The notes under the pieces: model-generated | What the model was told of the DNA's origin: nothing | What the model saw: only the letters and a program-made list of their open reading frames with translations | Database searches by the model: none | DNA from: a virus | Strand: one strand, 5' to 3' | Virus record (IMG/VR): IMGVR_UViG_3300021431_000015 | Span: 634-64,633 of that record | Length of the DNA: 64,000 nucleotides | Translations under genes and position numbers: made by a program | In this document: positions 230 through 41,593 of the stretch, piece after piece | Layout: every line of letters starts with the position of its first letter | Numbering within the stretch: the first letter of the stretch is position 1

Positions 230-379
230 ATGGAGAAGACCTGCGACAACTGCAAGCACAAGGCCGCCGAGTCCAGGGACGAGGACGGCAAGCGCATAGT
301 CGACTGCGACATCAACTTCCGCCAGATGTACTCGCCGTGGGCCGACGAATGCAAGCACTGGGAGCGCGATGACGATTAA
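230..379 (+). CDS. small CxxC zinc-binding protein (49 aa)
   Basis: ATG directly after TAG of previous gene; CDNCKH..C..C pattern; 3' end overlaps terL start by 11 nt. Confidence 0.4.
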   Translation: MEKTCDNCKHKAAESRDEDGKRIVDCDINFRQMYSPWADECKHWERDDD

Positions 380-6981: not shown

Positions 6982-7175
6982 CGAAGTTCGTTAAGCGTGG
7001 CGCCATCGCCACCATCGAGGAGCTTCCGGACGGTTGGTTTCTGGTGAGAGTCACGTGGAGCCCACGGCCACGGACTCGCTATGTGTGCAGCACAGCCGCG
7101 AAAACCAAACGGGAAGCGTTTGAGCGTCTCCCTGAAAACGGCTACGGCTGGAAACGAGTATCGAGAAAGGGGTGA
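6975..7175 (+). CDS. hypothetical basic protein (66 aa)
   Basis: ATG overlapping upstream stop. Confidence 0.45.
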   Translation: MVTKFVKRGAIATIEELPDGWFLVRVTWSPRPRTRYVCSTAAKTKREAFERLPENGYGWKRVSRKG

Positions 7176-7249
7176 TGCGAGTGGAGAAGCTGTTCTCCCT
7201 GCTCCTGGCAGCGAGCGTGCTGCTGGGATACATCGGAATGTTGAGCTAA
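7175..7249 (+). CDS. possible 24-aa hydrophobic peptide
   Basis: ATG in TGATG overlap; single TM-like segment. Confidence 0.25.
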   Translation: MRVEKLFSLLLAASVLLGYIGMLS

Positions 7250-17582: not shown

Positions 17583-17813
17583 ATGGTTTTGGAAGCGGTC
17601 ATGCACGCATGGAACGAGGGCAATTCGTTCCGCGTGCGGCTGGGTGATTTCGCCACGGAAAAGGACGCGCAGGACGCCGCGCTCCGCTTCCGCAAGCGAT
17701 TCGCCGACAGCATCGATGCGGTGATTCTCTACAAAGACGAGGAGGAAGTGTATGGCAAGGAAACGGGAGCTCACGGTGGAGCGATGGTCGGAGAATCTCG
17801 CAACGGAGCGTGA
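17583..17813 (+). CDS. hypothetical protein (76 aa); overlaps next gene by about 60 nt
   Basis: GAGGAGGGGAA-ATG. Confidence 0.45.
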   Translation: MVLEAVMHAWNEGNSFRVRLGDFATEKDAQDAALRFRKRFADSIDAVILYKDEEEVYGKETGAHGGAMVGESRNGA

Positions 17814-18645
17814 GCTAATCAGGCAGATGGACGATGCCACCGTCTGGCAGCTCTTGAAGTACCACGTCGATGCGGGGCACGATTTGAAGGACGTGGTGTT
17901 CGAGCAGCAGATGGCGTTGCTCTGGAAGGAATGCGGCATGCAGGTATACGACTTCGACCCGGATTTCACGCAGTCCATCCTGAACGAGAACTGGGTCGAC
18001 TTGCTGCCGGACTGCATAGGCAACAGGCCATACGACTGCTTCTACATGAAGCTGCCCTGCGGCAAGCAGAACGAGGGCGTCGTGGTGTTCGTCGTCGGCA
18101 CCGACCGGATTGACGGCTTCAGGCCGGACTGGTTCCCCGGTGCGCTTGACGCGAAGGGCGTCTACGTCGGCGGCAACGGGGAGGAGCGTACCATCGTCAA
18201 CACGGGTGAGGAGACGCTCTGCCTGTGCTACTTCGCCATATCGAAGACGATTGACCTGATGTTCGACGACACGCCGCTCGAACGATACCCGAACTCGCTG
18301 GTCGCGAACGGCGTGGCCTACCTGTGCTCGCTCAATGCGGACATAACGCCCGTGTACAAGCCGCAGCCCAGTCTCAGGCGCAACAACGCCAAGCGCCGCA
18401 GCAACGCCACATGGTACGATGTCGGGGCCAGGGTCGGCTCCGAACTCAGGGCCTACACGCACGTGAAGTCCGGCCACAAGCCGCATCAGGGCGGCACGGT
18501 CAGGCCGCACATGCGCAGGGCGCATTGGCACCACTTCTGGACTGGCCCAAGGGACGGGGCGCGGAACCTCGTCCTCAAATGGCTCCCGCCGACAATCGTG
18601 GGCGCCGGGAAGCCGGACTCCCCCACTTTGCACAAGGTCGGGTAA
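17752..18645 (+). CDS. hypothetical protein (297 aa) with His/Trp-rich C-terminal motif RAHWHHFWTG
   Basis: GAGGAGGAAGTGT-ATG; no family recognised by eye. Confidence 0.7.
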   Translation: MARKRELTVERWSENLATERELIRQMDDATVWQLLKYHVDAGHDLKDVVFEQQMALLWKECGMQVYDFDPDFTQSILNENWVDLLPDCIGNRPYDCFYMKLPCGKQNEGVVVFVVGTDRIDGFRPDWFPGALDAKGVYVGGNGEERTIVNTGEETLCLCYFAISKTIDLMFDDTPLERYPNSLVANGVAYLCSLNADITPVYKPQPSLRRNNAKRRSNATWYDVGARVGSELRAYTHVKSGHKPHQGGTVRPHMRRAHWHHFWTGPRDGARNLVLKWLPPTIVGAGKPDSPTLHKVG

Positions 18646-18663
18646 TGCTCTACACTCTGGCCC

Positions 18664-19293
18664 ATGGATTACAGGGTGCATGGATTCAGGCATGGGGATT
18701 ATCTAATCCGCAACGTAGACGAGTACCGGCCTTACTGGTCGGAGGTCAGGGACGTGCTCGATTCCATCACCGAATCGCGGATAATCGCCCATTTCCAGGA
18801 TAACTATGAGGGTAGGAAGAAATCCATCTCGCTGTCCCTCAACGCGCTCCTGAAGGAGGAGTTCGTGGCACGTGGATGGAATGCGGAGTCGCAAATCTTC
18901 TCCGAAGCAGAATACGCCGACAACCAGAGCATTTTCAGGCTCGATTTCGCCAAGGGGATAGTCTCCATCGAAGTCGCGTTCAACCACGGCAACGACGCGC
19001 CCTGGAACCTCCTGAAGCCCACCCTGGCAAGCGAGTTGAACCACGTGGAGAAGGCCATCCAGACGGAAATCGGCATCATCATCACCGCCACCGACGAGAT
19101 GAAGGCCAGCGGCGGTTTCGACGCCGCAGTCGGCTCATACGAGAAGTACATCCGCTTCCTGCGCCCCATGGGCATGCTGTTGACCGCCCCGCTCGTGATA
19201 ATCGGGCTCGAAGCCCCGAAGACGTTCCATGTGGAGCATGAATCCCGGAACGGCAAGAAGCTGGGGCATATCGTCCGCGATTTGAACGTTTGA
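18664..19293 (+). CDS. type II restriction endonuclease, BglII/BamHI-like fold (predicted)
   Basis: GIVSIEVAFNHGNDAPWNLLK and EIGIIITATDE align with BglII ..TLVEVQFSNYPFLLNN.. and ..KVAIIITKG.. catalytic core; directly upstream of a C5-MTase. Confidence 0.65.
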   Translation: MDYRVHGFRHGDYLIRNVDEYRPYWSEVRDVLDSITESRIIAHFQDNYEGRKKSISLSLNALLKEEFVARGWNAESQIFSEAEYADNQSIFRLDFAKGIVSIEVAFNHGNDAPWNLLKPTLASELNHVEKAIQTEIGIIITATDEMKASGGFDAAVGSYEKYIRFLRPMGMLLTAPLVIIGLEAPKTFHVEHESRNGKKLGHIVRDLNV

Positions 19294-19349
19294 TCCGAAG
19301 CGGACTATCTGATACCATCGAAAACCGAATAAGACGAAGGGAGTAACGC

Positions 19350-20642
19350 ATGATTCGCGTCGCTGAGATGTTTGCCGGAGTCGGCGGGTTCCGCCTGGGC
19401 CTGGAGGGCTATGGAAAGCCCGGTGACAAGCTCTACAAGCCGCCTGCTGGCAATTTCAAGACCGTCTGGGCCAACCAGTGGGAACCGCCGGGAACTCCGG
19501 CCCGCCAGTTCGCCTGGAAATGCTACGAAAGCCGCTTCGGCGAGGGTTCCTGCGTCAACGAGGACATCGAGAAGGTCTTGGACGACTATGAGGCCGGGAA
19601 ATGCGAGATTCCCGACTTCGATATGCTCGTAGGCGGGTTCCCGTGCCAGGACTACTCAGTTTCCAAGCCAGCTCGCCTTGCGGAAGGCATAGAGGGCAAG
19701 AAGGGCGTGCTGTGGTGGTCAATCCAGCGAATGCTCAGGCTCAAAAGGCCGAAGTACGTCCTCCTGGAGAACGTGGACAGGCTCCTGAAGTCCCCGACCG
19801 GAAAGAGGGGCCGCGATTTCGCAATCATGCTCTCCTGCCTGGCCCAGTTGGGCTATTCAGCCGAATGGCGCGTCATAAACGCCGCAGACTACGGGATGCC
19901 ACAGCGGAGAAGGCGCGTCTATATCTTCGCAAAGCTCGGAGAGCCAATCTCCAACCCAAAAAGCGCGCACAAAGGAGTTTTCGCAAGGCTCATGGCGCCG
20001 CCCTTCGACCCCGAGAACGTGATTCTGCGCAACGGAATCTTCGCAAGGGCCTTCCCTATCACCGATACCGTCGAAATCAGCAGCTTTCCCATCCCGAAAG
20101 ACCCGTATCAGGCTTCTGAGGACTTCGGCGAGCCGAAGGCGTCGCCTTTCGGCACGGCAGGATGCATGTTCGGCTGCAACGTGTGGACCTGCGCCATCCA
20201 ACCGGCCTACGAAGGCTCGAAAACCGTCCTCGGGGACATCCTCGAACCCGATTCCATCGTACCGGAGGAGTTTTTCATCGCCGATGACGCCCTGGAACGT
20301 TGGAAATACCTCAAAGGGGCGAAGAAGGAACCCAGAACGGCCAGGAACGGCTTCGAGTACATGTACTCGGAGGGTCCAGTGGCCTTCCCCGACCCATTGG
20401 ACAAGCCATCGCGCACGATTTTGACCTCGGAGGGCGGGAAATCGCCGTCCAGGATGAAGACCGTCGTGCGTGGAAGCTCTGGAAGACTCCGTAGGCTCGT
20501 CCCCGACGAATTGGACGCCCTTCAGATGTTCCCGAAGGGCTGGACCGAGGGCATGACGGACGGCCATCGGGCGTTCTGCATGGGAAATGCGCTCGTTGTG
20601 GGTATTCCGCACAGGATTGGGGCTGAAGTCGCTCGACTATAG
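19350..20642 (+). CDS. DNA (cytosine-5)-methyltransferase
   Basis: motif I FAGVGGF, motif IV GFPCQDYS, motif VI ENV(DRLL), motif VIII QRRRRVYIF, motif X GNALVVG. Confidence 0.9.
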   Translation: MIRVAEMFAGVGGFRLGLEGYGKPGDKLYKPPAGNFKTVWANQWEPPGTPARQFAWKCYESRFGEGSCVNEDIEKVLDDYEAGKCEIPDFDMLVGGFPCQDYSVSKPARLAEGIEGKKGVLWWSIQRMLRLKRPKYVLLENVDRLLKSPTGKRGRDFAIMLSCLAQLGYSAEWRVINAADYGMPQRRRRVYIFAKLGEPISNPKSAHKGVFARLMAPPFDPENVILRNGIFARAFPITDTVEISSFPIPKDPYQASEDFGEPKASPFGTAGCMFGCNVWTCAIQPAYEGSKTVLGDILEPDSIVPEEFFIADDALERWKYLKGAKKEPRTARNGFEYMYSEGPVAFPDPLDKPSRTILTSEGGKSPSRMKTVVRGSSGRLRRLVPDELDALQMFPKGWTEGMTDGHRAFCMGNALVVGIPHRIGAEVARL

Positions 20643-24587: not shown

Positions 24588-26960
24588 TTAGAAAGGCGCT
24601 CCGTGGACCTTCATGTGTAATTCGCGGTTCTCGGCCTTGAGGCGTGCGTTCTCAGCCGACAGCATTTCGGCCTCGTCGCGCATCGCCACATAGTCTGCGG
24701 CCTTCGCGTCCGCCAGCAGCTTCTCCATCTTGCGGAACGACTCGCGTTGCACGTCGCACACGTGCTGCTTCTCGTCCAGCTTGTCGCGCAGCTCGTCGCG
24801 CTCGGCTTCGAGGTTGTTGACGTAAGCAACAAGGCTCGGGCAATCGGCGGTTCCGCACTTCGGACCCATGCGGTTGAGGAAGTCGCGAGCCCATCCGTTC
24901 TCCGACTTCTCGAACTCAAGCTCATCCCGCAATTCGTCGCGCTCGGCGATCAGCTCGTCAATCTTCGCAATCACCATGCTGGATACATCAGCAGGAACCG
25001 CGTATTCATTGTGTGGATAGAAGCGCCTGTAAATACTTACAGCCTGGTCAATCCAATGAGCACGACCTTCAAGCAACTCGCCGTTACGCTCTTCAAGCTC
25101 CTTTGTTATGCGCCGCAAGTCGTCGCGCTCGGTAGTCATGTCAATCAGCTTGTTCATCAGCTTGTCGCCAGCATTGTTGGCCTTGTCCAGCTCGGCGGTC
25201 AACTCGGCAATGTCATCCTCGTACCTGTCGCGTGACACATACCATGCCTTGTTCAGCACGCCGCGCTCCGCGTCATTCGCGCGTTTACGCTGGGCTTCGA
25301 CTTCGGCTTTCAAATCGTCCACATGGTTTTGCAGCCGCGCCACCTCGCTCTGGCAGAACTCGCATTCGCCGTCGAACTCGCGCCGCGTTATCGCCGCTTG
25401 GCGGTCAAGTAGGTGCATGATGACTGTCGCTAGCACGTGGCCGTCATAGTTCGTGGTCACGATGTCCTCGCGCACATCCAGTCCACGCTCGTAAAGGTAG
25501 TGTTTCTGGGCATCGTTCCTGTAGAAGTCGTATCCCCAGCATATCTCGCGAACGTCCTCTTCGAGCCGTTCCCGGCTGTCGTGTTTGTCAGCTAACTTAT
25601 GCTTTTCGCCAATTGCTATAACTTGCGGCCTGGAATCGTCGGCCAACTTATAGTTTTCGGCGTTTTTTATAACTTGCGGCTCGTAATTCTCGTCCAGCAC
25701 GTTGACCGCGCTGCAATATGGGCAGCGCGGATATGTGCCGTTGACGTGCTCGCATGTCCTGCCGCACTCGCTGCATTCGAGGACGTGGACAGTGAGCCGC
25801 GTGGCGTATAGCTTCGGTTCAGCCGTGTCGAACCGCCTGCATTCGTAGCTCTCGGTTTCCTCCAGCTCGCATGTCCGTTTCGGTGCATCGTCGGCGCGTG
25901 TGTCGCACATGCCCTCGAAGCGCAGCTTCCATTCGTCGCGCTCGGCGCGTACCCGTTCCAGTTCTTCTTCGAGCGCATCGTGGGAGTAGCACCATTCACT
26001 CGATGTGATTGCTTCTTGGCGGTCGAGCCACGTATGCACCCTCGACCGCAGCACGTCGCGCATCTGCTCTGGCAGGTCAACGGCTGAGAACCCCTCGTAT
26101 ACATCGGCTCTCAACCGTTCCCGGCTGTCCGCATCGAAGTCGCGCATATTCACCTTTGCTGCATCGGTTTCGGCTGTTTCGGCGGTTTCCGGTGCAGCGG
26201 ATTTGCTGATTCGTTCATTCAATGCGTCGTTCTCGAATTGCAGGTTATTGCGTTCCCGCTTCACTTTCTCAGCCAATTCGCCGTTGTAGTCGACTCTACG
26301 CGCCAGTTCTTCCCGCTCACGCGCTGCTTCGTCGAGCAAGTCATGAAGCTCTCCAAGCCGCTGGCGGTGTTCCTCCCGGCATTCATTCTTCGTGATGGCC
26401 TCCTGGCGGTCGAGCCAGCGTCTAATCTCTGGCATCGAACCCGGTTCAACTGAATCTGCGAACACCTCATAAAGCGGATTGCCCTGCAAGTCACGTGTAA
26501 GCCAGTCGCATATGTCCGCTTCGAGCCGCTCCCGGCTGTCCGCTTGCGCGTTATCCACGGGGTGTTCAGGCACATCGTCGGCGCGGGTGTTCCAGGCGGC
26601 TATGGCTGATTCCTTGGTGTAATAAGCACCCATCGTATAGCCGCATTCATAGCACCCGGCGACATAGAAGAAACCGTCGCTGACGATTCTCGGCTCGCCG
26701 CCGTCCTCGCAATAATTGCATGGCTTGAGTCCGGGTGTGTTCGGGTCAGGCTCCAGCCCGTCATGTGCGACCTGCTCCTCGACCATGAGGTTCCATGCAT
26801 CGATGGCGCTGGCTTTCGTGCAGAGGGGCGCGGTTCTCATGTGCCGCTCGCACTCGCTGTCGAAGCATTCGGCGTACCAGGTGCCATCCTTGATTATGTT
26901 CGTCAGCACAGGCGGGTACTTGCAATACGGGCAAGCCTTCACGCTTATCGTTTCGCTCAT
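24588..26960 (-). CDS. Lar-like double zinc-ribbon N-terminus fused to a roughly 700-aa coiled-coil protein (Ea22-like)
   Basis: two tandem ACPYCKY..ECFDSECERH.. / CNYCEDGG..CYECGY Lar-family ribbons (..SAIAAWNTRA) followed by long heptad-rich E/R/L segments; GGGAGG RBS. Confidence 0.75.
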   Translation of the reverse strand: MSETISVKACPYCKYPPVLTNIIKDGTWYAECFDSECERHMRTAPLCTKASAIDAWNLMVEEQVAHDGLEPDPNTPGLKPCNYCEDGGEPRIVSDGFFYVAGCYECGYTMGAYYTKESAIAAWNTRADDVPEHPVDNAQADSRERLEADICDWLTRDLQGNPLYEVFADSVEPGSMPEIRRWLDRQEAITKNECREEHRQRLGELHDLLDEAAREREELARRVDYNGELAEKVKRERNNLQFENDALNERISKSAAPETAETAETDAAKVNMRDFDADSRERLRADVYEGFSAVDLPEQMRDVLRSRVHTWLDRQEAITSSEWCYSHDALEEELERVRAERDEWKLRFEGMCDTRADDAPKRTCELEETESYECRRFDTAEPKLYATRLTVHVLECSECGRTCEHVNGTYPRCPYCSAVNVLDENYEPQVIKNAENYKLADDSRPQVIAIGEKHKLADKHDSRERLEEDVREICWGYDFYRNDAQKHYLYERGLDVREDIVTTNYDGHVLATVIMHLLDRQAAITRREFDGECEFCQSEVARLQNHVDDLKAEVEAQRKRANDAERGVLNKAWYVSRDRYEDDIAELTAELDKANNAGDKLMNKLIDMTTERDDLRRITKELEERNGELLEGRAHWIDQAVSIYRRFYPHNEYAVPADVSSMVIAKIDELIAERDELRDELEFEKSENGWARDFLNRMGPKCGTADCPSLVAYVNNLEAERDELRDKLDEKQHVCDVQRESFRKMEKLLADAKAADYVAMRDEAEMLSAENARLKAENRELHMKVHGAPF

Positions 26961-27160
26961 CGTCCAACCTCCCAACTCAGGCACAGCTCGTGCGGCTCCT
27001 GCTCGCCGTTGATTGCCAGCTTGTCGGCGATTGGAGCAGCCGTCTCGCCGCCGTATTCGGGCGGCGCATAGTCCAGGCACATGAAATGCCCCGCGCCGTC
27101 GCCGTCTGCCCACTTGCAGGTATCGCAGAGGTAGTGCCACGTGTATAGCTTTTCGCTCAT
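26957..27160 (-). CDS. small Cys-containing protein (67 aa)
   Basis: AAGGAG RBS; ATGA overlap. Confidence 0.5.
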   Translation of the reverse strand: MSEKLYTWHYLCDTCKWADGDGAGHFMCLDYAPPEYGGETAAPIADKLAINGEQEPHELCLSWEVGR

Positions 27161-27363
27161 TCGTCCGCTCCTTCCCCGCTCAGCTCTGCCCACGCGCGTT
27201 TCGCTTCGTCGCTCATCTGGCTATATGTCTGGCAATGGCTCATGTCCTCATATACGTACTCGTGCAGCCAGCTCGATTCCGTGTTGCCGCATATGCCGTA
27301 GGAGCACTCCCCGCACGGGCATGGATAGAAGAAGCGGCAGCTCGCGCAAATCGGCTCTTTCAT
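27157..27363 (-). CDS. Cys-rich zinc-finger mini-protein (68 aa)
   Basis: CASCRFFYPCPCGEC..C; junction motif AGGGGTGATGCGGAATG upstream. Confidence 0.55.
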   Translation of the reverse strand: MKEPICASCRFFYPCPCGECSYGICGNTESSWLHEYVYEDMSHCQTYSQMSDEAKRAWAELSGEGADE

Positions 27364-27587
27364 TCCGCATCACCCCTTCGCTTGCCCCACGCGCAGAACC
27401 CGTATGGCGGCACCATGTCGCGACCAGATTCGTTGCACATCATCGGCCATCCTGGGTCTATCGGCTGCGGGTCTTCGACGTAGAACCTGCAATCGCGGCA
27501 TCGCACGAGCGGCTCGGCTGGCTTGGTCAATCGGTGCCACCCATCGGGGTCTGCTTCGTCTCGAATCGAGATGATGTACTCGCTCAT
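27360..27587 (-). CDS. CxxC mini-protein (75 aa) ending RGDAE
   Basis: ATGA-coupled chain; internal ATG start. Confidence 0.5.
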   Translation of the reverse strand: MSEYIISIRDEADPDGWHRLTKPAEPLVRCRDCRFYVEDPQPIDPGWPMMCNESGRDMVPPYGFCAWGKRRGDAE

Positions 27588-27787
27588 CCCACCACCATCT
27601 TCTTTCGCGGCCCGCATGTGATTACATCACCCAGTTGCACGCGCATGTTCCAAGACGTCGCAACCTCGCCGTTGACCCTGATGGCTCCTGCGTCGACCAA
27701 CCGCCGCACCTCCGCGTAGCCGCTCGTGAAGCCCCTGTCGCATAGCTCTGCGGCCAGGATTCTGCCGTTCCTCACGAATTCGCCCAT
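27584..27787 (-). CDS. S4-domain RNA-binding-like protein (67 aa)
   Basis: ILAAELCDRGFTSGYAEVRRLVDAGAIRVNGEVATSWNMRVQLGDVI matches the S4 fold consensus. Confidence 0.6.
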   Translation of the reverse strand: MGEFVRNGRILAAELCDRGFTSGYAEVRRLVDAGAIRVNGEVATSWNMRVQLGDVITCGPRKKMVVG

Positions 27788-28008
27788 GGCTTCACCTTCC
27801 CGAAGTGGCCGACGATGATTCCGGCTCCCAAGTTGTCCGAGAACTCGCCGGTGTCAACATCCTCGGCTGTCCACGCATCGCCGCCGTACCAGTTGAGCAC
27901 GCTCACGCGCAGGCGCTCGCCGTCGTTCCATTCGAGCACATCGTCAATACGTATCGGCCTGCCAGTGCGGTCTGTCGGCAACTTGACCTTGCGCTTTTTC
28001 TTTTTCAT
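27772..28008 (-). CDS. hypothetical protein with poly-Lys N-terminus (78 aa)
   Basis: internal ATG (MKKKKRK..). Confidence 0.45.
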   Translation of the reverse strand: MKKKKRKVKLPTDRTGRPIRIDDVLEWNDGERLRVSVLNWYGGDAWTAEDVDTGEFSDNLGAGIIVGHFGKVKPWANS

Positions 28009-28343
28009 CGCCCCGCCTTCCACGCGTATTGCCGCCATAGCCAATGGCATCTAGTGAGCCGGTCGAGGCTCCACCTGTCCGAGCAGTACCACACATCGGC
28101 GCGGAAGCATTCGAGCCATTCTTCGACTGTCCGTTCCTTTTCCGCATCGGTCTGGTGCAGGTGTTCCCAATTGCCCTGCGCCAGGTTCTTCCACATGTAG
28201 TCGATTGCCTTGCGGGTGAAGCTCTCGCGGATTAGCACAGCCTCGAACGCTTGCCGCCATAGCTTCTCGACCTCGGCTAACGAGCAGTCGGGCGTCCTGA
28301 TGTAGCGACACAACGCCATGCTGCGTTCGTAGGCGTCGCTCAT
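28005..28343 (-). CDS. hypothetical protein (112 aa)
   Basis: ATGA coupling; junction motif upstream. Confidence 0.55.
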   Translation of the reverse strand: MSDAYERSMALCRYIRTPDCSLAEVEKLWRQAFEAVLIRESFTRKAIDYMWKNLAQGNWEHLHQTDAEKERTVEEWLECFRADVWYCSDRWSLDRLTRCHWLWRQYAWKAGR

Positions 28344-28564
28344 TCCGCATCACCCCTCAGCTCGCGTCCGCACATCGGGCAGTTGTTGATCACGAAGTGG
28401 TCGTCAATCTCGATTTCTGTTGAGAAAACAGCATCGCTCGCTTCGTACTTCAAAATCGGCTGTTTTTGCGTCTCGCCGTCGCGCCTGCGCAAAGTGCGTG
28501 TGCCTATGTAGAAATAGCCGTCACCACCGAAAATCGGCTTGCCATGCTCGCAGTATTCGCACAT
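28340..28564 (-). CDS. zinc-ribbon mini-protein (74 aa) ending NCPMCGRELRGDAE
   Basis: CEYCEHG..CPMCG. Confidence 0.55.
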   Translation of the reverse strand: MCEYCEHGKPIFGGDGYFYIGTRTLRRRDGETQKQPILKYEASDAVFSTEIEIDDHFVINNCPMCGRELRGDAE

Positions 28565-29103
28565 CACGCATCACCCCGCAGCCCAGCGAGCTTGCGGAAG
28601 TGTCCCTTCACAAGTTCCGCAACCTTCGCGCTGTCCTCTTCATCGAATGTAAGTTTCTGCCCCTCGAAAATGACGCTCGTGCGCGGTACGGGGCAGATGG
28701 AGCCTTCTTCCAGGGGGCGAATGTAACTTCCGGGTAACATTCCCCCATCGGCGAGGTCGCGCCCCATTCGCCGCCCATACTCCAATGCCGTGATGTGTTC
28801 GGCGATTGCGGCGCATTCGCGCACGTCGAGCGCGGGTATGTCGCGCATGTACCACGTCCCCTTGCCAGCCGTGTCGTCGCGGTTCGGGTTGAAGCCCATA
28901 GGGATGAACACGTTCGGGTCGTCGTTGCGCTCGAAGTGCTGCCAGAAGCACTCGACTGTCCATGCGCCGCCGTGGATGGTGTCGAACAGCAAGTGATGCT
29001 TGTCATAGCCGTTGCTGAACTCCTTCTCCCACGTCTCTGACGGGTACTCGCCATCGAAGCTGCGAACGAGTTTGTAGCCCAAGTCTTGCAGCATGATACC
29101 CAT
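28564..29103 (-). CDS. hypothetical protein (179 aa) ending LRGDA
   Basis: TGATG junction both ends. Confidence 0.6.
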   Translation of the reverse strand: MGIMLQDLGYKLVRSFDGEYPSETWEKEFSNGYDKHHLLFDTIHGGAWTVECFWQHFERNDDPNVFIPMGFNPNRDDTAGKGTWYMRDIPALDVRECAAIAEHITALEYGRRMGRDLADGGMLPGSYIRPLEEGSICPVPRTSVIFEGQKLTFDEEDSAKVAELVKGHFRKLAGLRGDA

Positions 29104-29363
29104 CACGCATCACCCCTCAACCATTCGAGCAGCGCGTAGTAATCGCCGCAAACTCCATCGGGCGTGTTGAAGAACGGGCAACCGGGGCACTTGTCCGCAA
29201 GGTCGCACATGTCAGTCACAATCCGTGCCGCCCGCTCTGGCGTGCCGAACAGCCGCTCGTAGTTCGTCTCGGATTTCGGCGTGTAATGTGAGCAGCCCAG
29301 AACCGTGTCGCTGCGCCAGGGACAGCCTGCCGTTTCGCACAAGGCGCATATCACATCGCTCAT
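29103..29363 (-). CDS. Cys-rich mini-protein (86 aa) ending LRGDA
   Basis: CALCETAGCP..CPGCP. Confidence 0.55.
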   Translation of the reverse strand: MSDVICALCETAGCPWRSDTVLGCSHYTPKSETNYERLFGTPERAARIVTDMCDLADKCPGCPFFNTPDGVCGDYYALLEWLRGDA

Positions 29364-29815
29364 TCCGCACCATCCTTAATCTCGCGTCCGCATTTCGGGC
29401 AGTACGCCCAGCGGTAATCTCCCAAACCGTACCCGCAAACGGAGCAACGGTAGCGCGGCGTGCCGTCCGGTTTGGTTCCGTGCTTCACTCGCTCGCATTC
29501 TCCACGTTCAAACTTCGCGCTCAGCTCGTCGGCGATTGCCTGGAAGTCAGCCCTCCATACAGCTCCATGACGCCCGAAGTCGAATGTCGGTCTTGCATCC
29601 AGATGAGGCGCTATTAGCTCGCGCACCTGCTCGGCTGTCAGCTTCCCGCCGCCCAGCGTCGCGGCGATGGCCTGAGCCGATTCCTCGCGGATGCGCTCGT
29701 AGGCTTCGCGCACATCTTTGTCCTTGGCTTTCGTCTCGGTCGCTTCGACGCGCAGCGTGAAGCACTCATGCTCGAACTCGTCCAGCAAGCGCAGCAGCTC
29801 GTCCGTCGCGGTCAT
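29360..29815 (-). CDS. hypothetical protein (151 aa) with C-terminal zinc ribbon ..CSVCGY..CPKCGREIKDGAE
   Basis: ATGA coupling. Confidence 0.6.
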   Translation of the reverse strand: MTATDELLRLLDEFEHECFTLRVEATETKAKDKDVREAYERIREESAQAIAATLGGGKLTAEQVRELIAPHLDARPTFDFGRHGAVWRADFQAIADELSAKFERGECERVKHGTKPDGTPRYRCSVCGYGLGDYRWAYCPKCGREIKDGAE

Positions 29816-30006
29816 TTTGCACCGCCTTTCACTGGTTCAAAATCTTCGCACGGGCAGTTATCGTCATAGTCGCACGCAAGCGCGAACGCCCTTCGCGGGT
29901 CGCCTGTCTTGCAAGCGTCATGCAGGCATATGCATGACTCGTCTGTTGTCACGTGGTTTTCCCAGTAGCACCACCTGCAATCGAGTGGCGTGAAATCGTC
30001 GCTCAT
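29812..30006 (-). CDS. Cys-rich mini-protein (64 aa)
   Basis: CRWCYW..CIC..C..CPC. Confidence 0.5.
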   Translation of the reverse strand: MSDDFTPLDCRWCYWENHVTTDESCICLHDACKTGDPRRAFALACDYDDNCPCEDFEPVKGGAK

Positions 30007-30272
30007 TTCACATCACCCCTCAGCTCGCAGGCGTCGAGCACGGCCCTTGCGCCATTGTCCTCGTAGCCGTAAATCTTCTGGCCGCATGCGCACCTGCGCT
30101 GGTAGCCGCGAAGCTCAGCGCCACAGAGGATGCAGTGGTAACGCTCTCCATCCCACGGTACGAGCGGCACGTACACGATGCCGCCTATCCGGTGGGGTTC
30201 TTCCGGGTTCTCACGCACCTGTTGGACCCTGAACGGCATCAATTCTGGTGCCGTGTAATCGAAGTCAATCAT
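30003..30272 (-). CDS. zinc-finger mini-protein (89 aa) ending LRGDVK
   Basis: CILCGA..CACG. Confidence 0.55.
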   Translation of the reverse strand: MIDFDYTAPELMPFRVQQVRENPEEPHRIGGIVYVPLVPWDGERYHCILCGAELRGYQRRCACGQKIYGYEDNGARAVLDACELRGDVK

Positions 30273-30532
30273 TCAGCACCGCCTTCCCCGAGCTGCGTCA
30301 TGAAGTACCAGAAACTCTCGTTAATCGGGTTAAGGCATTCATGGTTCGTCCATTCCCAGAATGCATCGACGTTCGGCTCGCATTCGCCGCAGGCGTAGCG
30401 CCTGTACGGTTCGTGGTCCCAAACGCCGTGCTCGCACAGCACGACACTCCCATTCGGTATGGTGGCGTTGCAATACGCGCACCGATGGTCTTTGCGCGTC
30501 CGTAGGTGCATCTTGTGGTGAACGTCGCTCAT
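30269..30532 (-). CDS. zinc-finger mini-protein (87 aa)
   Basis: CAYCN..CEHG..CGEC. Confidence 0.55.
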   Translation of the reverse strand: MSDVHHKMHLRTRKDHRCAYCNATIPNGSVVLCEHGVWDHEPYRRYACGECEPNVDAFWEWTNHECLNPINESFWYFMTQLGEGGAE

Positions 30533-30548
30533 TCCGCACCGCCTTTCT

Positions 30549-30743
30549 CTAGCCCAACCAGAGGTCGATAACGACCAGGACAGTCACGAGGATGAGCGCG
30601 AACAGGATGCTTCCCCATATCGGCGAAAGCACGATCCACCATTCCCAATCGACCACGCCACATAGCTTCAGCGCGATGAAGAGAATGCCGAGCGCACCGA
30701 AGAAGCCGATGCCGCCGTTGCGTGCATTGTTGTTGTCGCTCAT
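30549..30743 (-). CDS. small membrane protein, 2 predicted TM helices (64 aa)
   Basis: GIGFFGALGILFIALKL and WGSILFALILVTVLVVI hydrophobic spans. Confidence 0.5.
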   Translation of the reverse strand: MSDNNNARNGGIGFFGALGILFIALKLCGVVDWEWWIVLSPIWGSILFALILVTVLVVIDLWLG

Positions 30744-31006
30744 CGCTTCACCGCCTTGCACATGTAGCAGCATTCATCGTCGCGGCTAGGGCAGGTCTCA
30801 TCGAATCGGTAGTAGCCGATTCCAACGGGCGCTCGCTCGATTTCGTCGGCGGTCGCGGGCCGCAGGTATTCGAGCGGCGTCGATGCCGCCGTGCACCCCG
30901 TGTGGTAGCACACGTGCGCGGTGCGGAAGCCGCATTCGGTGACGCGCCCAATTTCCTGCTTGTAGCCGGGGTCGTACACAACCCAGTCGCCAAACTCAAA
31001 CATCAT
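30740..31006 (-). CDS. Cys-rich hypothetical protein (88 aa)
   Basis: internal ATG; CGF..C.H.GC...CCYMC. Confidence 0.5.
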   Translation of the reverse strand: MMFEFGDWVVYDPGYKQEIGRVTECGFRTAHVCYHTGCTAASTPLEYLRPATADEIERAPVGIGYYRFDETCPSRDDECCYMCKAVKR

Positions 31007-31284
31007 GCGTCCACCGCCTTCGGCTTGAAATGCCTGCACTCGCCGCGCCCGGCCATGGCAATCAGCTCCGCATACTTCCCATCCGCACACTCGCGGCACT
31101 CGCTCGGCGCATCGCCGTGCAACCACCTGTCAACCTGCTCGCAGAATGGGATGTCGCACGTGCCGCCGTCCATCCTCGCGCTCGCGGGAATCTCCACGGG
31201 CTCGCCCGTGGCTGCATGCCTGTGCGTCCCCGGCGTGAGCGCGATGTTGGGGTAATCGCCGGACTTCTTTAGTGCTTCATCCAT
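31003..31284 (-). CDS. Cys-rich hypothetical protein (93 aa)
   Basis: CDIPFCE..CREC..C. Confidence 0.5.
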   Translation of the reverse strand: MDEALKKSGDYPNIALTPGTHRHAATGEPVEIPASARMDGGTCDIPFCEQVDRWLHGDAPSECRECADGKYAELIAMAGRGECRHFKPKAVDA

Positions 31285-31496
31285 TACTGCTCACCATCCC
31301 ATCTTCCGTGAAGCGCGAGGGACTTGTTCGCCCACATCACGCACTCCTCGAGCTTCGTCATCGCGAGCGACTTCTCGCGGCTCGGCTTGCAGCGCAGCGC
31401 GATAATCCCTTCCAGCTCTTCGGCGGCATTGCGGATGCTGTCGCTATCCTCGATTTCATCGTCGCCCATGTAATGACGCTTGAATATCTCGCTCAT
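31284..31496 (-). CDS. hypothetical protein (about 70 aa)
   Basis: second ATG preferred for RBS spacing; alternative start 31505. Confidence 0.45.
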   Translation of the reverse strand: MSEIFKRHYMGDDEIEDSDSIRNAAEELEGIIALRCKPSREKSLAMTKLEECVMWANKSLALHGRWDGEQ

Positions 31497-31511
31497 TGTC
31501 TGCATCTCCCG

Positions 31512-34583: not shown

Positions 34584-35009
34584 CTAAGCGAACGGGATGT
34601 CGTCGTCGTACATGGCGGCGCCGGAATCGTACCCGCCGCTCGAATAGCCCTGGTTGTCATACGAACCGGACTGGCTGTCCCTGCGCTGGCTCATGAACTC
34701 CAGCTCGTCGACGATGACCTCGAGCTTGGAGCGCTTCTGGCCGTCGCGCTCCCAAGAGCTGTAATGCAGGCTCCCGTGGATGGCTACCTTCGCGCCCTTC
34801 GTGACGTACGGAGCGACCGCCTGGGCACGCTTGCCGAACATGGTGCAATCGACCCAGTTCGCATAATCCTCCCACTCGCCCGTCTGGGCGTTCTTGCGGC
34901 GCTCGTTGACCGCGAGGCCGAAACCAAGCACCGAGGCGCCTGATGCGGTCTGCCGCAGCTCTGCATCCCTCGTGCAATTGCCCGACAGCGTAACCGAATT
35001 GATGCTCAT
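34584..35009 (-). CDS. ssb: single-stranded DNA-binding protein
   Basis: OB-fold core and acidic C-terminal tail ..MYDDDIPFA. Confidence 0.85.
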   Translation of the reverse strand: MSINSVTLSGNCTRDAELRQTASGASVLGFGLAVNERRKNAQTGEWEDYANWVDCTMFGKRAQAVAPYVTKGAKVAIHGSLHYSSWERDGQKRSKLEVIVDELEFMSQRRDSQSGSYDNQGYSSGGYDSGAAMYDDDIPFA

Positions 35010-35272: not shown

Positions 35273-35734
35273 TCACTCCCCTCCAGGCCCCACGAACCGG
35301 AGCCTTGCAATCTCTTCGGGCGTCATCACATCTATGCCGAGCTGCTCGCATTCCCACCTGATGCCGTCGATCAGCTTGGTGAATTCGCCCGTGTCCATCT
35401 TCGAGCTGCCCTTGTAGGCCATGACCTGGCGGTAGACGCCCTCCTCCATGGCAACGGTGCGGTAATCCGCGTCCCAATGCTCGAAGTAATCGGCGGGGTC
35501 TATCTCGATGCGCAGCAGCATCGGCTCGCAGACCCCGTATTCCCTCAGCATCTTCTCGTGGACTTCCGAATCGGACAGTCCCACGGCACGCGCAAGCTCG
35601 TTCACCAGCACCCAGTAGTAGGCGTTCTGCGTGAGCGTGCGGCGCCGCCGTTTCAGCTTGCACTCGTACCGGGCATCGGTCGGCTGGGATAGCAGCCAAC
35701 CGATTACCTCGTCCCTCAAGCCGGTGAAGCTCAT
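35273..35734 (-). CDS. NinB/Orf-family recombination mediator
   Basis: RTLTQNAYYWVLVNELA matches lambda Orf RSLDQNRKLWACLGDVS signature. Confidence 0.65.
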   Translation of the reverse strand: MSFTGLRDEVIGWLLSQPTDARYECKLKRRRRTLTQNAYYWVLVNELARAVGLSDSEVHEKMLREYGVCEPMLLRIEIDPADYFEHWDADYRTVAMEEGVYRQVMAYKGSSKMDTGEFTKLIDGIRWECEQLGIDVMTPEEIARLRFVGPGGE

Positions 35735-36465
35735 TGCATCGACCGGTACATGTCGGCACGCTCGAGCCAGAAGGCCGGGTCTTGCGCCCTGCCCTCGGAC
35801 TTGGCCTTCTCGACCTCGGTCGACCAGATGCCCTCGGGCGACCCGCCACGGCGTCCGCAGAAGCCGACGAGCGCATCCTTGAGCACGTTGCGGGCATCTT
35901 CAAGCGCTGGGTCGGCAGCGGGCTTCTTGGCGGGCTTAGACGGCTTCTCGTTGGCTGCTGGCGGGTCTTCCCGCCCCGGCTTCATGGCCTCCGCCCTCTC
36001 GGACTTGCTCCAAAGGTACGTCGCCACGCCGAAGCGCATGGCACCGTTGCGGATGGCGTCGCCGATAGCCTCCTTGACCGCGTTCGGCCCGGTCTTGCCC
36101 TGCGAGTCCCCGTAGCACATCCTCTTGATGCCGAGAATCGTTATCCAGCACCAGAGCCCGCCGTTGCCGTCGAAGCACGGCAACCCCGCCGCGTTGTACG
36201 CCATCGGCTCGATGTGCCAGAAGGGGTCGACCTCGTTCAGCCGGTCGGTGATTCCCGCATGGCCGACGTAATCCAGGTGCACGGCAGGGAGCGGGTGCCG
36301 CTTGCCGCATTCCGGGCAGTTGCCGTAGGCGTTCTTGGGGACACGACCGTTCTGGTCTTTCTTCCCGCAATACTTTGGCAGCTTCTCGATTTGGTCGTCG
36401 TCGAACGGCCTCTTGAGAAGCTCGAGCCTCTTCTGAAGCTCCTCCTCAGAATAGGTGGCTTCCAT
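35731..36465 (-). CDS. Rad52-family single-strand annealing protein
   Basis: YVGHAGITDRLNEVDPFWHIE and GDSQGKTGPNAVKEAIGDAIRNGAMRFG align to the Rad52/Sak core (YIEGHRVINLANEMFG..GW ; ..KEAVTDGLKRALRSFG). Confidence 0.7.
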   Translation of the reverse strand: MEATYSEEELQKRLELLKRPFDDDQIEKLPKYCGKKDQNGRVPKNAYGNCPECGKRHPLPAVHLDYVGHAGITDRLNEVDPFWHIEPMAYNAAGLPCFDGNGGLWCWITILGIKRMCYGDSQGKTGPNAVKEAIGDAIRNGAMRFGVATYLWSKSERAEAMKPGREDPPAANEKPSKPAKKPAADPALEDARNVLKDALVGFCGRRGGSPEGIWSTEVEKAKSEGRAQDPAFWLERADMYRSMQ

Positions 36466-37858: not shown

Positions 37859-38232
37859 TAGTCCAACCTCGCATCCACGAACCCGTCCGAACTCGAACGG
37901 GCGACCCTGAACTTGAGTTCAGGGTCCTGTTCCATAGCCACCCGAGCCAGCGCTGGCGAGATGGCGTTGTTCACCGATGTGCATAGCTTCTGGCTGAATA
38001 CCAGCGTCCCGTTCAAGACGTCCAGCCCGCCGCGCATCTGCTCGCGGACTGAGTTGGGGCTCGCCTTGTGGTCTGTGGAGTGCTTGGCCTGGTGCCTTGC
38101 CAGCCGCTTGTACCGCTCGAACGCCTCTGGGTTCTCGTGAACCCACAGCCGCGCCCTCTGCACCAGCTTGTCCCCCTTCGAGCCGAGCTGAAGCTCGGAC
38201 TGGTTGCTCGGGGGTGGCCCATAGTCAATCAC
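37858..38232 (-). CDS. hypothetical protein (124 aa), GTG start
   Basis: junction motif AGGGGTGATGCGAA-GTG upstream. Confidence 0.5.
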   Translation of the reverse strand: MIDYGPPPSNQSELQLGSKGDKLVQRARLWVHENPEAFERYKRLARHQAKHSTDHKASPNSVREQMRGGLDVLNGTLVFSQKLCTSVNNAISPALARVAMEQDPELKFRVARSSSDGFVDARLD

Positions 38233-38639
38233 TTCGCATCACCCCTAACGGCCTTGCGGATCGCTTCCGCAACCGGCGCGGAGGTACTGCCACCCTTCGG
38301 GTCGATGTTGACCGCGACCGCCAACGCGATGGCCTTGAGCAGCCTGTTCTGCTCCTCAACATAGGACAGGAGCATGTCAACCCTGTCCGACAGCTCCATG
38401 ACGGCGAGCGCCAGGTCGTCGGAGCTCCCGGCCTTCTCGGGCTCGGCGACACGCTCTGGTTCAGGCTCGGGCTCTGGTTCCGGCTTCGGGTCGTAATACC
38501 CGGTGAGGATTCTGCCGACCGTCGCCCTGGACACGTCGGCTAGCTTTCCGATGCGCTCGTAATCCATGTCCGGGAACTCGGCCTTCAGCTCCTTGACCTC
38601 TGCAACCTTTTCCGGCGTTACTGTCTTTCCCCTAGCCAT
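38229..38639 (-). CDS. HTH DNA-binding protein with (PE)n linker, ends RGDAK
   Basis: DYERIGKLADVSRATVGRIL helix-turn-helix; PEPEPEPEPE linker. Confidence 0.6.
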   Translation of the reverse strand: MARGKTVTPEKVAEVKELKAEFPDMDYERIGKLADVSRATVGRILTGYYDPKPEPEPEPEPERVAEPEKAGSSDDLALAVMELSDRVDMLLSYVEEQNRLLKAIALAVAVNIDPKGGSTSAPVAEAIRKAVRGDAK

Positions 38640-39162: not shown

Positions 39163-39239
39163 TGGTGCCCACGCCCGGACTCAAACCGGGAACCTGCCGC
39201 TTAGGAGGCGGCTACTCTGTTCAGTTGAGCTACGTGGGC
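39163..39239 (-). tRNA. tRNA-Arg (anticodon CCT)
   Basis: cloverleaf folded by hand: acceptor GCCCACG/CGTGGGC, D-arm GCTC/GAGT, anticodon arm GCCGC-CTCCTAA-GCGGC, T-arm CCCGG-TTTGAGT-CCGGG, encoded CCA. Confidence 0.8.
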
Positions 39240-39242
39240 TTG

Positions 39243-39317
39243 TGGTACGCGGTGGTGGAATCGAACCACCATCTGACGGTTATAAGCCGCCTGCTCTGAC
39301 CTTTGAGCTAACCGCGC
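39243..39317 (-). tRNA. tRNA-Ile (anticodon TAT, reads AUA)
   Basis: acceptor GCGCGGT/ACCGCGT, D-arm GCTC/GAGC, anticodon arm GGCGG-CTTATAA-CCGTC, T-arm GGTGG-TTCGATT-CCACC, encoded CCA; 3 nt after previous tRNA. Confidence 0.75.
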
Positions 39318-40127: not shown

Positions 40128-40478
40128 ATGGAATCAATCAAAGAGGGCATAAGAAGGAACTTGGTTGAGCTGTTGGCAAACAGCGACAAGAAGAAGAGCG
40201 ACCTCGCCAGGTCATGCGGCGTCGGTAGGTCCGCTGTCACGAACTGGATTAACGGCTCGTCGTCGATTGATATAGAGCGGATACCTGCCATATGCGACTT
40301 TTTTGAAGTTAGCGTCGATGAGTTCTTCGGCAGGTCAAAAATCGAATCGTCGGTGAGAGCGGCCAGCCAGCAGGAAATCGAAATGCTGGCCCTTTATAGG
40401 TCTATGCCCGCACACGAAAGAGAGTTATTGTTGGAGACGGCAAGAACGTTTGCGCAAATGTCCGGGGGTTCAAAATGA
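40128..40478 (+). CDS. CI-like XRE-family repressor candidate (116 aa), co-transcribed with integrase
   Basis: LARSCGVGRSAVTNWINGSSSIDIERIPAICDFFEV HTH; GGAAGGTGG RBS; ATGA overlap with int. Confidence 0.65.
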   Translation: MESIKEGIRRNLVELLANSDKKKSDLARSCGVGRSAVTNWINGSSSIDIERIPAICDFFEVSVDEFFGRSKIESSVRAASQQEIEMLALYRSMPAHERELLLETARTFAQMSGGSK

Positions 40479-41593
40479 GGTCGTCCCTCGGCCAGATACA
40501 GCGCCTCGGCCCCGACTACTACCGCGTGTGGGTAGAGGGTGAAAGGGACTCCAACGGCAAGAGGACGCGTCCGAGCGAGGTCGTTAGGGGAACCAGGCAG
40601 GACGCGGAAATCGCCCTCGCGAAGCTGCTCCTCGCCAACGGCAAGCCAGCCGGAGACGCATCCGGCATGAAGCTGTCGGAAGCCTGGGACGTGTACTACC
40701 GCCCCACCCTCCCCGCAAGGCTCAAGCGGGACACCATCAAGCACATAGACTCGACCTACAAGGCGCACATAGAGCCGCTGTTCGGGGACATGAAGATGGC
40801 CTCCCTCACGACCCGTGGCATAGAGCAGAAGATACTCACCGTCGAGAAGCCGTATGCACGCGACCACACCTTCCGCGTCATGAGGGCTTTCGTCAACCAG
40901 CTGTGGAACTGGGACCTGCTGGACTCGAACCCCTTCGACAAGAAGATGAGGGTCAAGCCACCGAGGAAGGCCGAGCAGCCCGTCATGGGCGCCGGGGAAC
41001 TCGCGGAGTGGACAAGGGCCATGGAGGGCTTCATCCACGAGGCCGCTATCCTGCTGTACCCCTACGCGGGACTCAGGCGCGGCGAGGCGTGCGCCCTCAA
41101 GACGGATGACTTGAGGTTCATGGAAACCGATTCGGGGCTGCTGCTGTTCGCCGACGTCCACGGCGAGGTGCTGGACGACGGCACATACGACGACTCCAAG
41201 ACCGAGCGCAGCGATAGGACGGTCGTGGTGGCCGGATACCCGGCTGCGCAAATCCGGTACGTGGTGGCCGGGATGGAACCGGGCTGGCTCGTCAGGATGG
41301 AGGACGGCAGGAGGGCCACGCCCCACACCTTCTCCAGGAGGTACAAGGAATGGTGCGCCAGGAGGGGCATCCCATACTATTCGATCCGGCAGCTCCGCAC
41401 CACATACGCGACGCTCTCGCAGGCGTCCGGGGTCGATGCCACCGTGACATCGAGGGCCTTGGGGCACACGAAACTCTCGATGGACTACGCCCACTACTTC
41501 ATGGCGAACATGCCCTCGCAGGTGGCCGCAGCCCAGGCAATCTCGAATGCAATCTCCTCCGAGTTGCAACACGATGCAACACGCCTAAAATGA
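40475..41593 (+). CDS. int: tyrosine site-specific integrase
   Basis: 372 aa; core-binding N-domain, R..H.R..Y catalytic signature (..RTTYATLSQ..HTKLSMD..Y). Confidence 0.85.
   Translation: MRSSLGQIQRLGPDYYRVWVEGERDSNGKRTRPSEVVRGTRQDAEIALAKLLLANGKPAGDASGMKLSEAWDVYYRPTLPARLKRDTIKHIDSTYKAHIEPLFGDMKMASLTTRGIEQKILTVEKPYARDHTFRVMRAFVNQLWNWDLLDSNPFDKKMRVKPPRKAEQPVMGAGELAEWTRAMEGFIHEAAILLYPYAGLRRGEACALKTDDLRFMETDSGLLLFADVHGEVLDDGTYDDSKTERSDRTVVVAGYPAAQIRYVVAGMEPGWLVRMEDGRRATPHTFSRRYKEWCARRGIPYYSIRQLRTTYATLSQASGVDATVTSRALGHTKLSMDYAHYFMANMPSQVAAAQAISNAISSELQHDATRLK

Follow-up and report, generated by a model that had tools for sequence, protein, structure and literature searches.

Herein we describe a recurring gene-boundary sequence in a 64,000-nucleotide (nt) stretch of the IMG/VR virus record IMGVR_UViG_3300021431_000015 (positions 634 to 64,633 of the record; hereafter "the window"), which represents a temperate tailed phage and carries on its minus strand an array of 17 accessory minigenes (m01–m17, positions 26957–31505). 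The boundaries between these genes repeatedly show one of two sequence types, which we call class A and class B junctions, and in which one short sequence plays three roles: ribosome-binding site, stop/start overlap and C-terminal codons of the upstream gene. The positions, reading frames, codon choice, conservation and combinatorial flanks of the junctions can be read directly from the DNA, and they suggest that the element is probably a translational-coupling junction that doubles as a short conserved recombination linker.

Junctions of the minigene array

The array comprises 17 minus-strand open reading frames (ORFs) of 64–179 amino acids (aa), running from 31496/31505 down to 26957, and its delineation from the ORF table, overlaps and translations agrees with the gene calls of a near-identical contig, L078. 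Four ORFs that are over-extended in the program-made list were shortened to begin at the start codon overlapping the stop of the preceding gene, and the starts corrected with respect to that list are 31006, 30743, 28008, 27587, 27160 and 26960. The refined starts are thereby 31496, 31284, 31006, 30743, 30532, 30272, 30006, 29815 and 29363 for m01–m09, and 29103, 28564, 28343, 28008, 27787, 27587, 27363 and 27160 for m10–m17. From m01/m02 to the boundary between m17 and the downstream gene for a Lar-domain protein, stop and start share 4 nt (ATGA) or 1 nt (TGATG/TAATG) at 15 of the 17 junctions, the remaining two being a 16-nt overlap and a 16-nt gap, which bears out the count of about 17 minigenes in a first-pass annotation of the window made from the sequence alone. 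The same annotation had called the proteins that meet at the junctions otherwise unrelated, and all-against-all BLASTP of the 17 minigene products agrees, the sole exception being a CPxCGRE knuckle common to m08 and m11 that falls within a 48-nt DNA patch of 85% identity. Its picture of Cys-rich zinc ribbons holds in part: 12 of the 17 proteins contain at least four Cys, but at least two CxxC motifs are found in five of the 17 rather than in most, and Pfam zinc-ribbon matches are weak.

The core of class A, GGGGTGATG, occurs seven times in the window versus 0.76 copies expected, a count that none of 100 shuffles reached. Six copies lie on the minus strand (27368, 28348, 28569, 29108, 30011 and 38237), exactly at the six near-identical junctions singled out earlier, and each stands precisely 5 nt ahead of an ATG or GTG that overlaps the upstream stop (ATGA, GTGA or TGATG). 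A start codon follows all seven copies; the seventh (7169–7240, plus strand) stands 4 nt ahead of a GTG opening a hydrophobic N-terminus (VEKLFSLLLAASVLLG...), so the same flavour of ribosome site is used occasionally outside the early operon. A further candidate at 27632 (minus strand) was rejected, as the sequence there is TGGGTGATG instead of GGGGTGATG and no junction is present. The 20-mer proposed in the first-pass annotation has four matches in the window at no more than three mismatches (0.02 expected); it also described the next gene as starting with ATGAG, but ATGAGC opens only two of the six downstream genes. Overall, class A takes the form (GAG)CTGAGGGGTGAT-GCGGA-ATGA or ...GGGGTGAT-GCGTG-ATG. 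The second class, B (GGAAGGCGGTGAAGCGATGA, with the tail KAVKR), which the first-pass annotation had overlooked, also recurs in the array, and AAGGCGGTG is present in seven copies versus 0.70 expected, five of them inside the array. The largest direct repeats of the array are all found at junctions.

All individual junctions described here are on the minus strand. Class A copies separate m06/m07 (30003–30026, GAGCTGAGGGGTGATGTGAAATGA, upstream tail ELRGDVK, ATGA overlap, Shine–Dalgarno (SD) duplex −13.9 kcal/mol), m09/m10 (29101–29121, TTGAGGGGTGATGCGTGATG, WLRGDA, TGATG), m10/m11 (28562–28582, CTGCGGGGTGATGCGTGATG, GLRGDA, TGATG), m11/m12 (28340–28383, including the CPMCGRE knuckle; GAGCTGAGGGGTGATGCGGAATGA, ELRGDAE; the copy taken as reference for the 48-nt direct repeat D1) and m15/m16 (27360–27378, GAAGGGGTGATGCGGAATGA, RRGDAE, −14.9 kcal/mol), whilst the sixth lies outside the array between early genes of 136 and 124 aa (38229–38247, TTAGGGGTGATGCGAAGTGA, VRGDAK, GTGA). 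The m08/m09 junction (29360–29403, AAGGATGGTGCGGAATGA, IKDGAE) is 85% identical over 48 nt to the m11/m12 patch. Class B is represented by m03/m04 (30740–30759, CAAGGCGGTGAAGCGATGA, KAVKR) and, as a class B-type variant, by m02/m03 (31003–31022, GAAGGCGGTGGACGCATGA, KAVDA); other junctions are found at m05/m06 (30269–30287, GAAGGCGGTGCTGAATGA, EGGAE) and m07/m08 (29812–29830, AAAGGCGGTGCAAAATGA, KGGAK). The junction before m05 (30529–30548, AGAAAGGCGGTGCGGAATGA, −15.6 kcal/mol) lies in the 16-nt spacer after the m04 stop. This spacer (30533–30548), the only one of the array, is itself an untranslated copy of the coupling junction, AGAAAGGCGGTGCGGA, with the m04 stop just upstream of it in a different frame, an arrangement that would fit an insertion of m04 before an existing junction.

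Class A amounts to an extended SD, GGGGUGAU, with a duplex energy of about −14 kcal/mol against the canonical 16S rRNA tail, where it pairs over 8 bp (one of them G-U) with the stretch AUCACCUC. Class B (GGAAGG-C-GGUGA-AGCG-AUGA) forms 6 + 5 bp with one mismatch in between, and both classes engage the GAUCACCUCC part of the 16S 3′ tail. Against the tail GAUCACCUCCUUUCU, the mean duplex energy was −13.2 kcal/mol for the 18 array starts, compared with −10.6 for the other early genes, −11.6 for the remaining phage genes and −4.6 for random 18-mers. The junction SDs themselves range from −11 to −15.6 kcal/mol, lie inside the upstream ORF and are separated from the start by 4–5 nt, whilst genes elsewhere in the phage mostly use a plain AAGGAGG in an intergenic spacer. 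These energies and the overlap geometry are in line with the earlier proposal of a strong embedded SD placed for coupling across stop/start overlaps. The same geometry holds in 35 related loci (382 kb), where 41 of 43 copies of GGGGTGAT stand exactly 5 nt before an ATG or GTG overlapping a stop; base composition alone predicts 15 copies.

Between 24.5 and 39.5 kb, a stretch made up of the array and the preceding early genes, neither promoter-like sites (2 versus 4.0 expected) nor terminator-like sites (9 versus 12) were in excess. Folding of six junctions gave no shared or unusually stable RNA structure (z-scores −1.8 to +1.3), and the junctions had no Rfam match. These results fit a single polycistronic message with termination–reinitiation coupling. 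Judging from positions and frames, translational coupling at the junctions is plausible: each boundary would be a compact translation-reinitiation cassette, with an SD 4–5 nt ahead of an AUG whose bases are shared with the stop of the gene before it (AUGA/UGAUG), and a ribosome finishing one gene would be held at the junction and restart on the next. The junction SD would probably also be able to recruit ribosomes de novo.

The ribosome site is also translated, which accounts for the C-terminal tails. In AUGA and UGAUG overlaps alike, the AUG begins at the last position of a codon of the upstream gene, and this phase together with the fixed 5-nt spacer gives the class A site a constant reading, AGG-GGT-GAT-GCG and then GAA-TGA or TGA, and thus RGDA(E); class B is likewise read AAG-GCG-GUG-AAG-CGA, or KAVKR. 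The codons involved are not the preferred ones, as GGT makes up 7–11% of Gly codons and GAT 22–33% of Asp codons in the phage; the pair GGT GAT is nevertheless used in six of six RGD tails, so the constraint acts on the nucleotides and not on an RGD peptide. The first-pass annotation had found a conserved C-terminal RGD on unrelated proteins odd, and one may ask whether (L)RGDA(E) has a function of its own, for example as an RGD of the adhesion type, as a degron or as a tag for interactions. Such tails do occur on six unrelated proteins of the window and on dozens in related phages; the idea is nonetheless barely credible, given the invariant use of rare codons, the start codon exactly 5 nt downstream of the motif in 41 of 43 cases, and variants that keep the ribosome site rather than the peptide. 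Orthologous tails of the m09 family, for example, read RGDA, RGEGE, RSDA, RKETE or KQVVDA, always with some ribosome site retained, and amino-acid conservation independent of the nucleotides was not found. The shared RGDA(E) and KAVKR tails are passive by-products of the ribosome site, and for annotators they are accordingly explained as translation artefacts and not as motifs.

One junction between many genes

The junction was followed into related phages through 22 loci anchored on the widespread m09 family, independent of the motif, together with loci retrieved by the motif itself. At class A junctions, at least 21 BLASTP families stand upstream and at least 25 downstream, all 28 pairs being distinct, and class B was found in 30 contexts. 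The check put forward in the first-pass annotation, a search of related phages for the same boundary sequence between different minigenes, was positive: the exact 24-mer GAGCTGAGGGGTGATGCGGAATGA, for which no chance matches are expected, is present in 27 metagenome contigs and, with the earlier loci included, in 30 distinct contexts on contigs of rumen phages and metagenomes (21 families upstream, 24 downstream), where a single upstream family is paired with up to four downstream families and vice versa. Gene order varies as well, with m09-m10-m15 in one relative (L176) and m09-m10-m11-m12-m13-m14-m15 in the window. Loci anchored on the SPFH protein gene (76) were also tried as relatives; they had no GGGGTGATG on the gene strand and shared almost no other genes with the window, and hence represent different phages that are uninformative on orthologous boundaries.

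Shared ends of this kind could be remnants of tandem duplication, the minigenes being diverged paralogues with retained ends. The m08/m11 patch, which is a 3′ patch that includes the knuckle, and the tandem duplicates of the m09 family in several relatives point in that direction. We regard this explanation as very unlikely, however, since BLASTP detects no further similarity among the 17 proteins and leaves the 21 upstream and 24 downstream families at the 24-mer unconnected.

Conservation of the junction extends beyond the bases that pair with rRNA. It spans about 20–28 nt (GAGCTGAGGGGTGATGCGGAATGAgcga), and an alignment of class A junctions from related phages (n = 27) carries high information at the upstream GCTGA and the spacer GCG, and weaker information at +4 to +8 (Agcga). 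The conserved upstream (GAGCT) and spacer (GCG) positions do not pair with rRNA; an extension of the 16S-tail pairing by GAGCUGA upstream or by the spacer GCG was considered and rejected on hand alignment. Spacers start with GCG in 24 of the 27 lineage junctions, whilst a general IMG/VR sample of GAGGGGTGAT-N5-ATGA shows diverse spacers among the matches listed: for the 28 junction-type matches listed, the commonest spacers include 20 different ones seen once each. As the non-pairing conservation is confined to this lineage, it points to common descent rather than to a universal translational optimum. Conservation that exceeds the pairing bases might instead mark an operator, i.e., 20–28 nt recognized by a phage RNA-binding regulator or nuclease on early-gene ribosome sites, for which T4 RegA and RegB provide the analogy. 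An S4 RNA-binding domain protein encoded within the array, m14, would be a possible candidate, but the lack of conserved RNA structure and of Rfam matches at the junctions, along with the coexistence of two different junction classes, makes an operator highly improbable.

Closely related loci reveal where homology begins and ends. One 171-nt gene is 98.8% identical between L294 and L303 and has unrelated genes on both flanks; the homology runs from a class A junction (5′) to the ribosome site of the next gene (3′), and L303 holds ~440 nt extra between two class A copies. Between L301 and L305 (97% identity), there are indels of two whole minigenes (199 and 261 nt), alongside a 62-nt indel and two replacements. 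The limits of either minigene indel coincide with ribosome-site/start junctions; a GCGGGGA-type direct repeat flanks the indel of 199 nt, and the shared sequence at that of 261 nt is weak. One replacement ends exactly at a class A junction. In a manual reading of 16 other homology tracts in the lineage, ~21 of 32 ends fell at a ribosome-site/start junction, often with class B on both sides. An automated count placed 9–10 of 34 ends at junctions (versus ~5% for random positions), a figure that is too low since gene calls are missing for arrays on the other strand. The earlier suggestion that the junctions act as recombination joints thus stands insofar as mosaic breakpoints fall there, although mechanism and selection for intact genes are inseparable in these loci.

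These observations are consistent with a scheme in which the junctions at dozens of boundaries, each between non-homologous genes, would descend from one ancestral sequence, and homologous exchange within junction copies would swap, insert or delete whole minigenes while leaving every gene coupled. The 24-nt identity across many unrelated contexts argues for such homology-driven exchange; between phages, exact junction identity reaches 24–25 nt, approximately the minimal pairing segment of Red-beta (23–27 bp, PMC3945230). A plausible catalyst of the exchange would be the annealing protein that the phage itself encodes, together with NinB/Orf and single-strand binding protein (SSB); all three are predicted on the minus strand of the early operon: a phage single-strand annealing protein (35731–36465; phrog_3290, E = 4e-46, with a weak Erf-like match), which is a candidate catalyst of exchange at short homologies, a NinB/Orf recombination mediator (35273–35734; phrog_72, E = 1e-20, with a weak Pfam NinB match) and an SSB (34584–35009; Pfam SSB, 2e-30). 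The coupling, the recombination mechanism and the enzyme are what we infer from the sequence.

Several points weigh against this scheme. Many of the loci were retrieved with the motif itself as query and thus form a biased sample, and the duplex energies refer to a 16S tail (GAUCACCUCCUUUCU) taken as canonical, from which the host's own 3′ end may differ. Some breakpoints lie inside genes, as in the mosaic m06 and in the two L301/L305 replacements, which begin within ORFs, and boundaries at gene ends are also expected from illegitimate recombination followed by selection for intact, coupled genes. Within the window phage, exact junction identity is 16–18 nt, below the published Red-beta minimum. 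Moreover, the 17-mer GGGGTGATGCGGAATGA is also found at real junctions of unrelated low-GC phages and Clostridia operons, so convergence contributes to the core of the motif, and in other phages 2–4% of overlapping junctions share a 14-mer with another junction of their locus, as compared with 12% in the window and 8% in the lineage, meaning that the recurrence differs in degree and may be more general.

Part of this evidence would suit a pure translation signal, in which an optimal site, spacer and overlap arose by convergence and breakpoints gather at junctions through selection for intact genes. The strong SD duplex energies, the 17-mer at genuine junctions of unrelated phages (39–57% GC) and bacterial operons, and the 14-mers recurring in other phages all speak for it. 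We nevertheless consider it rather unlikely that this is the whole explanation: GAGCT upstream and GCG in the spacer, which do not pair with rRNA, are conserved in this lineage only; the exact 24-mer stands in 30 gene contexts with zero chance matches expected; and orthologous boundaries of the m09 family use other ribosome sites (AAGGAGA, GGTGGTGGA), which means that no single optimum is required. The coupling junction that doubles as a recombination linker hence remains the reading we favour.

One related locus holds what looks like a product of such events. In L077 (minus strand, ~5935–5897), a mini-ORF of 11 codons, MKPTEWLRGDAE, joins a start codon to the final eight codons of an m09-like gene plus a class A junction. 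The gene directly before it (~290 aa) is missing from the window, and the mini-ORF resembles a recombination scar with which coupling may still be relayed.

Relation to known coupling and shuffling systems

Gene pairs with ATGA or TGATG overlaps and an intragenic SD are known to be coupled, strictly so in 13 of 14 pairs tested, and removal of the SD usually lowered reinitiation in overlapping pairs (Huber et al. 2019, PMC6728339). The present junctions resemble these termination–reinitiation pairs in their 4-nt and 1-nt overlaps and in a ribosome site placed within the 3′ end of the upstream gene; they differ in that one specific 20–28-nt version is reused at many boundaries and across phages, and in that the site is in the unusually strong GGUGAU register. 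By these features, the junction appears to be a mechanistically ordinary termination–reinitiation coupler, though a strong and stereotyped one.

Short conserved boundary (linker) sequences have been proposed to mediate homologous exchange of phage modules, a view that Pope et al. (2011, PMC3029335) trace to Susskind and Botstein and to Clark et al. Linkers are rarely visible at mosaic boundaries (PMC3029335), and a possible parallel is Island3 gene 67/68, two neighbouring genes that agree in their 18 C-terminal residues (Pope et al. 2011, PMC3029335). Our junctions fit the boundary-linker idea in placing the same short sequence between non-homologous modules, with coinciding mosaic breakpoints, and the m08/m11 patch resembles the matching C-termini of the Island3 genes. 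Unlike the rare linkers, however, they are abundant, operate at the level of single genes and serve simultaneously as a translational coupling signal.

In T4-type phages, PeSLs are small regulatory cassettes repeated between non-essential small ORFs in hyperplastic regions, whose copies recombine so that genes are shuffled, inserted and deleted; each consists of a sigma-70 promoter and a stem-loop terminator in intergenic DNA (Arbiol 2010, PMC2839356; Comeau 2014, PMC4122927). The junction likewise behaves as a repeated regulatory cassette tied to small-ORF shuffling. It is distinct in being translational and located inside coding sequence, and it lacks a stem-loop and any promoter or terminator signal: no common hairpin was found at the junctions, and promoter- and terminator-like sites were at or below the shuffle expectation. 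Integron cassettes offer a further comparison, being small, unrelated and promoterless genes with a recurring attC boundary hairpin that are reshuffled between genomes by the IntI integrase. The array is similar in that small unrelated cassettes are separated by a recurring boundary element, whereas the junction is 20–28 nt long and its exchange would be driven by homology and not be site-specific. In the window, no attC-like hairpin was found at the junctions, and the sole integrase is a phage-type tyrosine enzyme ~9 kb away beside tRNA genes.

What is new here is therefore a translational, in-frame boundary cassette, the ideas of coupling and of boundary exchange being already known. A further and more tentative step, which we consider possible but doubtful, is that the two classes together make up a standardised "translational linker" system in which any minigene with a 24–28-nt junction could be exchanged, inserted or deleted in register by the annealing recombinase of the phage, making the early counter-defence array a homology-driven platform for cassette exchange. 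Were this so, the system would be a functional analogue of integrons and PeSLs built from an in-coding ribosome-binding site. Whether phage mosaicism arises by homologous exchange at short linkers or by random illegitimate joining and selection is a long-standing debate, hard to settle because linkers are so seldom seen at mosaic boundaries (PMC3029335). With one 24-nt sequence at dozens of boundaries between unrelated genes, and relatives that differ by whole cassettes, the question becomes directly testable.

Phage, host and neighbouring genes

The assignment to a temperate tailed phage is reflected in a large terminase (369–2054, plus strand), a tape-measure-type protein (55733–60568, minus strand) and a tyrosine integrase (40475–41593, plus strand). 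The long early operon on the minus strand runs from ~39 kb to 20.9 kb and ends in the 17 accessory minigenes, in the order replication/recombination module, SPFH protein, array and 790-aa Lar-domain protein; it also encodes a weak Hjc-like resolvase and DnaD-like and IstB-like loaders. Two tRNAs, tRNA-Arg(CCT) and tRNA-Ile(TAT), are found by Rfam between the early operon and the integrase (39163–39317, minus strand) and were the only Rfam matches in the window. The former reads AGG, the Arg codon present in every AGG-GGT-GAT junction, which accounts for 31% of Arg codons in the long phage genes.

Contigs near-identical to the window come from rumen-type samples. The junction motif is also present in small-ORF arrays of Eggerthellaceae/Coriobacteriales metagenome-assembled genomes (MAGs) from rumen, goat and roe deer (five MAG matches), and the host is therefore most likely a ruminant-gut member of the Eggerthellaceae. 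The scan of a genome collection with the 17-mer gave 79 loci, of which ~69 are expected by chance from the collection size and ~23 are junction-like, and is hence informative mainly for host assignment. A megablast search of INPHARED phages with 20 kb of the window returned no match, so that nothing similar was found among these curated phage genomes.

Most minigenes had no match in Pfam or PHROGs, or matched families of "unknown function". The first gene, m01 (31284–31496, minus strand), matches an Acb2/Tad1 hairpin-domain family (Pfam PF24729, E = 1.1e-16) and is thus a candidate cyclic-nucleotide sponge directed against defence signalling. On this basis, the array is likely to be a counter-defence region and to hold further genes of this kind. 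The m09 family (29103–29363, minus strand, in the window; also in loci L294–L315) has a conserved C-terminal domain, xELFGTPERAARTL..CxxC..YDALLEWL, without a Pfam match, and occurs in nearly every phage of the lineage, often as tandem duplicates. The gene m06 (30003–30272, minus strand) is a mosaic: residues 1–36 resemble genes of L097 and L091 (69–75% identity), whilst residues 32–89 match a different gene in L094 (88%). At the end of the array, the 790-aa Lar-domain/coiled-coil protein (24588–26960, minus strand), which overlaps m17 by ATGA (GGGAGGTTGGACGATGA), carries zinc ribbons of the Lar restriction-alleviation type close to the N-terminus and a long coiled coil after them, and its weak similarities to m08, m11 and m16 could mean that minigene-like modules are part of it.

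On the plus strand, the gene table of L078 lists an AcrVA2-like protein, a BglII-like endonuclease and a DNA methylase at 17752–20642, a block that would be a phage-borne restriction–modification pair beside an anti-CRISPR homologue; Pfam gave no match at E ≤ 1e-4 for 17752–18645. Between 11800 and 17300 on the same strand, several gene starts are preceded by CCCTCC, then 5–9 nt and (A)AGGAGG, an arrangement that could form stems sequestering the ribosome site or could represent the 3′ halves of terminator hairpins.

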